Assembly: GCF_054482525.1 (NCBI RefSeq)
Contig: NZ_CM137006.1
Strand: one strand, 5' to 3'
DNA length: 64,000 bases
Shown: one piece after another, positions 15,136-52,635 of the stretch
Position numbering within the stretch: the first letter of the stretch is position 1
How the letters are laid out: every line of letters begins with the position of its first letter
Notes under the pieces: generated by a model
Database searches by the model: none
What the model was told of the DNA's origin: nothing
The model's input: the letters and a program-made list of their open reading frames with translations, nothing else
Made by a program: the position numbers and the translations under genes

Positions 15136-15300
15136 AAAGAAAAAGGCAGCCTGTGGTTGCCTTTTGCCAATAATTCGCACACATTGCGGGTTACTGCTTT
15201 ATTTTCGTTCAGTGCTGATAACGAACATCAACCTGCAAAACGAAGCGCATAGTTTAAAATGGCTATCATCAATACGCTATATCTGATGGAAAAAAATATG
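15136..15300 (-). ncRNA. sraB: Candidate small RNA SraB (boundaries approximate)
   Basis: Intrinsic terminator (GGCAACC-ACA-GGCUGCC then UUUUUCUUU on minus strand, + coords about 15134..15161) sits about 36 nt upstream of yceD start; SraB reported in the yceF-yceD intergenic region (recalled); 5' end not determined. Confidence 0.4.
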
Positions 15301-15882
15301 CCTAAACTTATTTTAGCCTCCACCTCGCCCTGGCGTCGCGCTCTTCTGGAAAAACTGCAAATCTCTTTTGAATGTGCAGCACCCGAGGTCGACGAAACTC
15401 CACACAGCGACGAATCACCGCGACAGTTGGTGCTTCGACTGGCACAAGAAAAAGCGCAATCTCTGGCGTCACGTTATCCGGATCATTTAATTATTGGTTC
15501 AGACCAGGTATGTGTTCTTGATGGCGAAATCACCGGTAAACCGTTAACGGAAGAAAATGCCCGTCTGCAATTACGCAAAGCCAGCGGCAATATCGTCACC
15601 TTCTATACTGGACTGGCGTTGTTTAATTCGGCGAATGGGCATCTGCAAACAGAAGTGGAGCCTTTTGACGTCCATTTCCGTCACCTGAGCGAGGCGGAGA
15701 TTGATAATTACGTGCGTAAAGAGCATCCCCTGCACTGCGCGGGTAGCTTTAAGAGTGAAGGATTTGGCATTACGCTGTTTGAGCGTTTAGAGGGGCGTGA
15801 TCCTAACACGCTGGTTGGTTTACCGCTAATCGCGCTGTGTCAGATGTTACGTCGGGAAGGGAAAAACCCGCTGATGGGATAG
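15298..15882 (+). CDS. yceF: Maf-like nucleoside triphosphate pyrophosphatase
   Basis: ORF track 207 aa; start moved to [14 protein letters not shown] (194 aa). Confidence 0.88.
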
Positions 15883-15888
15883 TTGTTT

Positions 15889-15962
15889 GCGCCGGATGCG
15901 TTTACGTCGCATCCGGCAATCGGTGCTGGCGGCCTGATGCGGCGTAAACGCCTTATCAGGCC
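15889..15962. repeat. REP/BIME cluster (two palindromic units)
   Basis: GCGCCGGATGCG...CGCATCCGGC and GCCTGATGCGGCGTAAACGCCTTATCAGGCC read between convergent yceF and rluC. Confidence 0.7.
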
Positions 15963-15993
15963 AACCGTCCATTATCATGCTTATATGCTTGTA

Positions 15994-17164: not shown

Positions 17165-17525
17165 GTTTCCGTGTCCATCCTTGTTAAAACAAGAAATTTT
17201 ACGGAATAACCCATTTTGCCCGACCGATCATCCACGCAGCAATGGCGTAAGACGTATTGATCTTTCAGGCAGTTAGCGGGCTGCGGGTTGCAGTCCTTAC
17301 CGGTAGATGGAAATATTTCTGGAGAGTAATACCCAGTCTGTTTCTTTGATAATTGCGCTGTTTTTCCGCATGAAAAACGGGCAACCGACACTCTGCGCCT
17401 CTTTGAGCTGACGATAACCGTGAGGTTGGCGACGCGACTAGACACGAGGCCATCGGTTCACACCCGGAAAGGCGTTACTTTGCCCGCAGCTTAGTCGTCA
17501 ATGTAAGAATAATGAGTAAGTTACG
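17165..17525 (+). promoter_or_regulatory. rne long structured 5' leader (RNase E autoregulation); 5' boundary approximate
   Basis: 572-bp non-coding gap upstream of rne; the roughly 360-nt autoregulatory leader is established knowledge; TSS not determined from sequence. Confidence 0.5.
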
Positions 17526-39143: not shown

Positions 39144-39248
39144 TCACGAGGGCGCATTCGCGCCCTTTATTTTTCGTGCAAAGGAAAACGTTTCCGCTTA
39201 TCCTTTGTGTCCGGCAAAAACATCCCTTCAGCCGGAGCATAGAGATTA

Positions 39249-47595: not shown

Positions 47596-47677
47596 TTTTT
47601 CGCCTTTCATACTTGCAAAAGCGGAGAATCAGCTATCCTTTTCCCTGAAACCTCATCAACACAAAGGGAGAATCGTG

Positions 47678-48052
47678 ATGACCATGTACGCAACGCTTGA
47701 AGAAGCCATTGACGCTGCACGCGAAGAATTTCTTGCAGACAACCCCGGCATCGACGCCGAAGACGCGAATGTGCAACAGTTCAATGCCCAAAAATACGTT
47801 TTGCAGGACGGCGACATCATGTGGCAAGTTGAGTTTTTTGCCGACGAAGGGGAAGAAGGTGAATGTTTACCTATGCTTAGCGGTGAAGCCGCGCAAAGTG
47901 TCTTTGACGGCGACTATGATGAGATAGAGATCCGCCAGGAGTGGCAAGAAGAGAATACATTACATGAATGGGACGAGGGGGAATTTCAGCTTGAGCCACC
48001 GCTGGATACCGAGGAAGGACGCGCAGCAGCTGATGAGTGGGATGAACGTTAA
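47678..48052 (+). CDS. msyB: Acidic protein MsyB
   Basis: ORF track 125 aa; start at ATG giving MTMYATLEEAIDAAREEF (124 aa); highly acidic. Confidence 0.88.
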   Translation: MTMYATLEEAIDAAREEFLADNPGIDAEDANVQQFNAQKYVLQDGDIMWQVEFFADEGEEGECLPMLSGEAAQSVFDGDYDEIEIRQEWQEENTLHEWDEGEFQLEPPLDTEEGRAAADEWDER

Positions 48053-48280
48053 TCACTCATACGGGCCATGATGAATGTCGATCGGCAGCAGTAAAGTATC
48101 AAAAACCAGGGAGAATGGCAGATCAAGGATCGTGACATAACGCCAGGCGGAGTCACGCACATCCCATTGCACACCGGGATAATATTGGTTGCCATGCCCC
48201 TGCCCCGGTATAGTGCGACTAATAATGCTGCCACAGCCACTCAGCAAGGTCACCATGATGCTCACCACAATTAAACGCAT
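48053..48280 (-). CDS. yceK: Small lipoprotein
   Basis: ORF track 75 aa; lipobox LLSGC. Confidence 0.8.
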   Translation of the reverse strand: MRLIVVSIMVTLLSGCGSIISRTIPGQGHGNQYYPGVQWDVRDSAWRYVTILDLPFSLVFDTLLLPIDIHHGPYE

Positions 48281-48344
48281 TTGATACCTCTTCCGTAAAA
48301 AAATACCGGCATAACGCCGGTATTTTTATTGGCTCGTTGTTTTT

Positions 48345-48442
48345 GCCAGATGTGGCGTGAACGCCTTATCCGACCTACAAAATCTTGCAAAATCAACACA
48401 TTGCAGGAGCGATGTAGGCCTGATAAGCGTAGCGCATCAGGC
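48345..48442. repeat. REP/BIME cluster (two REP units)
   Basis: GCCAGATGTGGCGTGAACGCCTTATCCGACCTAC and GTAGGCCTGATAAGCGTAGCGCATCAGGC read between yceK and opgH. Confidence 0.75.
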
Positions 48443-48452
48443 AACTACGTTT

Positions 48453-52635
<4,183 letters not shown>

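Follow-up and report, generated by a model that had tools for sequence, protein, structure and literature searches.

The window, by which we mean the whole stretch of 64,000 nucleotides (64 kb) analyzed here, carries msyB (47675-48052, plus strand), yceK (48053-48280, minus strand) and opgH, also called mdoH (48453-51026, minus strand; stop codon 48453-48455), with opgG preceding opgH. The spacer between yceK and opgH spans 172 bp (48281-48452) and, read along the minus strand, follows opgH and precedes yceK. On the other side of yceK, the yceK-msyB arrangement has been described as a convergent overlapping pair (PMC12288877). The DNA is E. coli chromosome, reversed relative to K-12, and a window coordinate equals 1161859 minus the K-12 coordinate; over 648 bp the locus is 100% identical to that of strain 19KM1831 and 98.3% identical to that of K-12. 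A 57-aa open reading frame running across the repeats of the spacer (48271-48444, minus strand) was treated as an artefact of the mechanical ORF list. The K-12 RefSeq feature table (NC_000913.3) holds no repeat features at the locus or in the surrounding 49 kb, so the missing REP annotation at the locus is uninformative.

A first-pass annotation of the same DNA had placed two REP units in opposite orientation at 48345-48442, downstream of opgH and between opgH and yceK. Both strings were recovered there, correct to the base, and GCCAGATGTGGCGTGAACGCCTTATCCGACCTAC and GTAGGCCTGATAAGCGTAGCGCATCAGGC each have one exact occurrence in the window. The first, a y-type REP (48345-48378), reads GCCAGATGTGGCGTGAACGCCTTATCCGACCTAC on the plus strand and GTAGGTCGGATAAGGCGTTCACGCCACATCTGGC on the minus strand, with GTAG at the 5' end of the latter. 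The second, a z1-type REP (48414-48442), reads GTAGGCCTGATAAGCGTAGCGCATCAGGC on the plus strand, with GTAG at its 5' end, and GCCTGATGCGCTACGCTTATCAGGCCTAC on the opgH-sense (minus) strand. Both units have the GTAG foot (CTAC on the complement), and the opposite orientation is borne out by the tetranucleotides: CTAC at 48375-48378 closes the y unit and GTAG at 48414-48417 opens z1, both facing the stretch between the REPs. That stretch is a 35-nt L linker, AAAATCTTGCAAAATCAACACATTGCAGGAGCGAT (48379-48413, strand not assigned), recognized by an Rfam match and by alignment with its family, and containing the small palindrome TGCAA...TTGCA. Together the three parts make an element of 98 bp.

According to Ton-Hoang et al. 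(PMC3333891), E. coli REPs share a conserved GTAG at the foot and are divided into the types y, z1 and z2. BIME-1 elements combine z1 with y, occur as single copies and have a long conserved L linker, frequently with an IHF site, and BIME-2 elements combine z2 with y, have short linkers and form tandem arrays. The element in the window consists of one y and one z1 unit in inverse orientation around a long, well-conserved L linker, and it is extragenic. It follows the opgH stop and precedes the yceK start, and its place inside the 160-nt opgH 3' UTR puts it at the 3' end of a transcription unit. Each REP type is present once in the opgH-yceK intergenic region, which makes the element a single unit and not a tandem array; the BIME-2 combination of y and z2 with a short S linker in tandem copies is not what is found here. 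The 'REP/BIME cluster' of the first-pass annotation therefore stands as to REP/BIME identity, and the loose term 'cluster' gives way to one BIME-1 unit composed of y, L with an IHF core, and z1. The element is a non-coding, non-autonomous member of the E. coli REP repeat family. With other BIME-1 elements of E. coli it shares the inverted y and z1 units, the ~35-nt L linker with its IHF core, and the single, extragenic occurrence at the 3' end of a unit, and there is no structural difference from them; the window copy has three y substitutions and a perfect predicted IHF core, where the family consensus is one base off. It is an ordinary copy of an already known class, and K-12 itself has one at the same locus. 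Descriptions of these elements date back to the early 1990s, and RIB ('reiterative ihf BIME') and RIP ('repetitive IHF-binding palindromic element') are synonyms of BIME-1.

The y REP module is shared with BIME-2 and with REP325/naRNA4 (RF02564), and the naRNA4 model gives a weak match of 34.7 bits over the y REP and the nearby hairpin, below its gathering score of 59.5. BIME-2, the gyrase-cleaved class (PMC6379681), is built of y and z2 with short S linkers in tandem arrays, whereas the element in the window has z1, an L linker and a single unit. In K-12 MG1655 (locus L001, ~1113480) the y REP of the same BIME has GTGG where the complement of window positions 48375-48378 reads GTAG. With GTAG mutated, the REP-associated transposase TnpA-REP reportedly neither binds nor cleaves (PMC3333891); the K-12 copy may be immobile, and the window allele has kept its GTAG intact.

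As expected of REPs, which are imperfect palindromes of 30-40 nt capable of stem-loop formation, each unit folds better than its shuffles, with z between -2.2 and -4.6 depending on the strand. For the y REP the folding energy is -13.6 kcal/mol on the minus and -9.0 on the plus strand, and for the z1 hairpin it is -13.2 kcal/mol on the minus strand (z -4.6); on the opgH-sense strand none of 200 shuffles folded as well as either unit. The whole spacer, folded as opgH-sense RNA, reaches -61.3 kcal/mol (z -5.4). Two of the three substitutions that separate the y copy from the consensus fall at stem positions, where they give G.U pairs on the opgH-sense strand and A-C mismatches on the other, and the orthologue in Escherichia sp. 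E1V33 shows a double change in the y stem, from T-A to C-G, that keeps the pair. These changes would fit selection on the sense-strand RNA without proving it. Across 86 copies the three palindromes showed no significant covariation, with 90.2% of cells paired versus 89.8% in shuffles, so that the pairing follows from the sequence conservation of a young repeat, without demonstrated selection on structure. In a repeat so young and so highly conserved, the covariation result is uninformative and speaks neither for nor against a structural role of the palindromes.

A separate hairpin closer to yceK had also been reported, at about 48302-48324, and its core, ATACCGGC-ATAAC-GCCGGTAT, was found at 48303-48323. 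The 8-bp core (48303-48310 paired with 48316-48323) has five G-C pairs and a 5-nt loop and is extended by A/T pairs to 12 bp, giving a hairpin at 48299-48327 that reads as a terminator on both strands, the minus (opgH-sense) strand having a U7 tail and the plus strand a U5 tail. Its folding energy is -16.4 kcal/mol on the former and -16.9 on the latter (z -4.6 and -5.4, respectively), and K-12 carries exactly the same hairpin sequence. On the minus strand it is a GC-rich stem-loop followed by a U-tract, as expected of an intrinsic terminator. A simple terminator scan of the window did not report this hairpin, likely due to the extension of the stem into the T-run, which leaves too few T's in the tail window. 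What the scan did report, a weak plus-strand hairpin at 48316-48333, is at chance level (1 found versus 1.3 expected) and was given no weight.

Published 3' ends agree with the anatomy of the hairpin. The supplements of PMC10687069 report 3' termini of E. coli from Term-seq and RNAtag-seq, and the entries for this locus comprise an 'opgH Primary' 3' terminus at K-12 positions 1113560 and 1113565 (plus strand of K-12), with a 12-bp hairpin of -16.4 kcal/mol and U7, as well as a minus-strand 3' terminus at K-12 1113530 in the yceK-opgH spacer; Supplementary Data 4 of the same source gives the opgH 3' UTR as 160 nt. The ends were mapped in K-12 and are carried over to the window strain by way of the identical hairpin. 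In window coordinates they fall at ~48299/48294 on the minus strand and at ~48329 on the plus strand, the two feet of the hairpin. A search by gene name gave no other opgH terminus among the matches listed in the PMC10687069 tables, the TERMITe supplements had no 3'-end data for the locus, and the bioRxiv supplements of Adams (2020) had only a bicyclomycin-sensitive end antisense to msyB (K-12 1114048, plus strand). Mapping of the 3' end of the opgGH transcript, which had been put forward as a check on the original reading, thus has a published answer in K-12, where the ends lie in the hairpin U-tract. Mapped ends at both feet, together with the identical sequence, make the hairpin an intrinsic terminator that works in both directions and place the whole BIME-1 inside the opgGH 3' UTR (48294-48452, minus strand, ~160 nt), which ends at the terminator. 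The element is transcribed as part of this 3' UTR and is not the end of the transcript.

The same data bear on a reading in which the BIME is itself the functional end of the opgGH transcript, by REP attenuation, by Rho-dependent termination or as a processed stable 3' end, and in which the downstream hairpin would instead serve the regulation of yceK or msyB. A link between BIMEs and transcription attenuation is on record (Espeli, Moulin and Boccard 2001, as cited in PMC12306157), REP stem-loops appear as classic barriers to 3' exonucleases in the reference list of PMC12306157, and both REPs here fold stably on the opgH-sense strand. However, the primary opgH 3' terminus recorded in the PMC10687069 supplements is in the hairpin U-tract, beyond the BIME, and it is the hairpin that has the full anatomy of an intrinsic terminator. 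Moreover, in Citrobacter the hairpin follows directly after the opgH stop codon without any REP. We consider this reading as a whole very unlikely.

The hairpin shares with bidirectional intrinsic terminators between convergent units the A-tract, the GC-rich stem, the T-tract and the 3' ends on both sides. Unlike such terminators, it has a gene beyond it in the opgH direction, the yceK start codon lying 16 nt past the U-tract, and the promoter scan found no sigma-70-like promoter between opgH and yceK. Expression of yceK from behind the terminator therefore requires some read-through or an unrecognized promoter; candidate routes are read-through, a promoter inside opgH and a promoter overlapping the hairpin. 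Some transcription does cross yceK, as the bicyclomycin-sensitive end antisense to msyB shows. On the other strand, the plus-strand 3' end fits transcripts that come from msyB through antisense yceK.

The history of the site was reconstructed from orthologous loci, which were recovered via YceK homologues and then compared. The stem AAAAATACCGGC...GCCGGTATTTTT is invariant in eight taxa of four genera (E. coli, Escherichia sp. E1V33, E. marmotae, E. albertii, S. enterica, S. bongori, Citrobacter and Kluyvera), and the loops vary among them (GTTAT, GTAAT, CTGGC, CTGGA, ATAAA and CATCAA). The stretch between the opgH stop codon and the hairpin is far less uniform. It holds the full y-L-z1 element in E. 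coli, in Escherichia sp. E1V33 and at locus L084, a decayed version of the BIME-1 in E. albertii, and L and y only in E. marmotae, where z1 has been lost between two CCTG repeats. One degenerate z-like REP is present in S. enterica and S. bongori, Kluyvera has an unrelated REP pair of the GTAG type, and in Citrobacter 13 nt without a REP separate stop codon and hairpin. An invariant stem combined with differing REP content indicates that the terminator is ancestral and that the BIME-1 arrived later, as a lineage-specific addition to a REP-prone site. We conclude that 48345-48442 is very probably a single BIME-1, acquired by the Escherichia lineage through insertion downstream of the opgH stop codon and ahead of a conserved terminator hairpin that was already in place. 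The site between the opgH stop and this deeply conserved terminator amounts to a small natural experiment on the effect of a BIME on a 3' UTR.

The linker deserves separate consideration, as it carries both a predicted protein-binding site and a match to an annotated RNA family. A regex scan located an IHF core, AATCAACACATTG (48391-48403, plus strand), in the loop of the linker palindrome, and this core is a perfect match to the consensus WATCAANNNNTTR; the same expression has eight matches in the 64 kb on both strands, the linker one included. The core of the family consensus, AATTCAA, differs from the strict IHF consensus at one base, and only 4 of 105 copies are perfect, among them the window copy, in which a T-to-A change produces the perfect core. 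Judged by sequence, the perfect predicted match in this copy may be fortuitous. The supplements of PMC8407004, consulted for IHF occupancy, had no entry for the locus.

The linker also matches the Rfam family RF02751, ES036 (CssrF), scoring 45.7 bits where the gathering score is 37.6 (E 4e-6 for the window as a whole). The match runs from 48379 to 48421, aligns model positions 1-43 end to end, and takes in the linker and 8 nt at the start of z1. It invites the view that the stretch between the REPs is an sRNA gene of its own (ES036/CssrF, plus strand, 48379-48421) with the REPs as incidental flanks, a view favored by the score and by the ability of the window copy to form the model's small hairpin, TGCAA/TTGCA. 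Against it, ES036 matches at the gathering score the linkers of eight unrelated BIME-1 copies at other loci and in several species (loci L007, L008, L021, L046, L052, L064, L078 and L081), and across 86 copies only the five central pairs of the hairpin are invariant, the three outer pairs being mostly unpaired. Neither a sigma-70-like promoter nor a plus-strand terminator flanks the linker, the opposite strand is already transcribed here as opgH 3' UTR, and the literature search for ES036 found no relevant paper. An sRNA gene at this position is thus highly improbable. RF02751 is typed as an sRNA gene, whereas the sequence in the window is a dispersed-repeat module that lies antisense to the opgH 3' UTR and shows no promoter of its own. 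As ES036 matches so many unrelated BIME-1 linkers, RF02751 in effect models the repeat module, and its matches are best read as BIME-1 copies, not sRNA genes, unless further evidence is at hand.

Membership of the repeat family was assessed in two ways. In the window, consensus sequences for y (up to 3 mismatches allowed) and z1 (0 mismatches) were compared with 100 dinucleotide-preserving shuffles. The y unit has three mismatches and z1 none, they are the sole matches in the 64 kb, and the 100 shuffles gave no match. Beyond the window, one genome from each of 100,044 species was scanned with a pattern composed only of linker bases and GTAGGCC. This yielded 86 stretches. Apart from one Methylobacterium contig, they all came from Escherichia (coli, albertii, whittamii and unnamed species) or Pseudocitrobacter. 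From these sources 105 copies were extracted, with the consensus TGCCGGATGCGGCGTGAACGCCTTATCCGGCCTAC - AAAATCnTGCAAATTCAATATATTGCAGAAAnCnT - GTAGGCCTGATAAGCGTAGCGCATCAGGCA. A y REP (at least 28/35) was present in 103 of the 105 although it lies outside the search pattern, and the linker measured 35 nt, as in the window copy, in 90. Measured against this empirical consensus the window copy scores 32/35 for y and 30/30 for z1, and it aligns with the other y-L-z1 copies without difficulty, as a BIME-1 should. The consensus scan and the formal family search, both of which the first-pass annotation had proposed as tests of its REP assignment, hence came out in its favor, the former with matches at this position only, the latter through the Rfam linker match and the agreement with the 105-copy consensus. 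In E. coli the family is abundant, with at least 117,093 matching places over 5,425 genomes and a median of 15-17 places per genome among the matches listed, which extend to at most 40 in any one genome. That the palindromes could be chance inverted repeats, such as occur in every GC-rich intergenic region, or a regulatory structure particular to the locus and outside the REP family has nothing further in its favor and is excluded, to a negligible residual probability, by the shuffles, by the match to the family consensus and by the species-wide abundance of the element.

Two observations from the family scan concern copies elsewhere. The Methylobacterium contig (L035, NZ_BPQJ01000238.1, 261 bp, from a Methylobacterium frigidaeris assembly) carries a perfect enterobacterial BIME-1 together with a naRNA4-like REP pair (85 bits), and most likely reflects contamination of the assembly with E. 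coli DNA. In Escherichia sp. MOD1-EC7003, BIME-1-type units (y, L and z1) occur in tandem arrays: seven copies with a 107-bp period at L052 2719-3395, an array that reaches the Rfam gathering score for naRNA4, five copies with a 162-bp period at L055 13953-14635, and 4-5 copies at both L063 388-997 and L054 7894-8503. These arrays depart from the textbook rule that BIME-1 occurs as a single copy.

At the opgH-yceK locus the element is almost fixed in E. coli. It is kept in 5361 of 5426 complete genomes (~99%) at 96-100% identity, where retention was scored as coverage of at least 80% of a 372-bp query. A rare allele is found in E. coli strain YPE3 (NZ_CP041452.1, L095 190-380), whose spacer is 81.8% identical. 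It has kept z1, its linker is shortened and lacks the IHF core, its y-like REP has diverged, and its hairpin has the loop GTGGG and is preceded by extra bases. The lack of the linker core in this allele, with no obvious consequence known, argues against an essential role.

How the element may act can be considered at the level of both DNA and RNA. At the DNA level, the linker could be bound and bent by IHF between two cruciform-prone palindromes, and an IHF-bound BIME-1 might mark the end of the transcription unit as a nucleoid or topological landmark. At the RNA level, the two REP stem-loops, with a predicted ~-13 kcal/mol each on the opgH-sense strand, would give the 3' UTR further stable structure and could slow 3'-to-5' exonucleolytic decay of the opgGH mRNA. 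The position of z1 suggests a further effect. Its stem begins 10 nt past the opgH stop codon, and REPs at most 15 nt from a stop codon stall ribosomes and lower expression of the upstream gene, according to the summary of Liang et al. (2015) in PMC12306157; z1 therefore belongs to the class reported to stall terminating ribosomes. A bolder proposal is that z1 stalls ribosomes and throttles OpgH synthesis while linker-bound IHF and the REP RNA set the leak of the terminator into yceK. Were this so, an Escherichia-specific insertion would have changed OpgH and YceK dosage in comparison with Salmonella and Citrobacter; we regard it as unlikely. The literature consulted yielded no locus-specific functional data, including opgGH mRNA half-life or OpgH protein with versus without the BIME. 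The net effect of the BIME-1 at the locus is probably modest, because relatives manage with no REP (Citrobacter), a degenerate REP (Salmonella) or a different REP type (Kluyvera). The finding matters little beyond correct annotation: the opgH-yceK spacer holds a standard BIME-1, and the opgGH transcript is ended by the nearby hairpin, not by the REPs.

The window holds a few other features of related kinds. A second REP pair, GCCGGATGCGTTTACGTCGCATCCGGC and GCCTGATGCGGCGTAAACGCCTTATCAGGCCAAC, lies at 15890-15965, with a short spacer and no L-type linker. It shares its region with SraB (15136-15304) and is upstream of the rne leader (17165-17501). Apart from ES036, the Rfam matches that reached the gathering score were the ES056 sRNA (59293-59384), the PyrC leader (39199-39248), the RNase E 5' UTR element (17165-17501) and SraB (15136-15304), all of them expected for this part of the E. 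coli chromosome.
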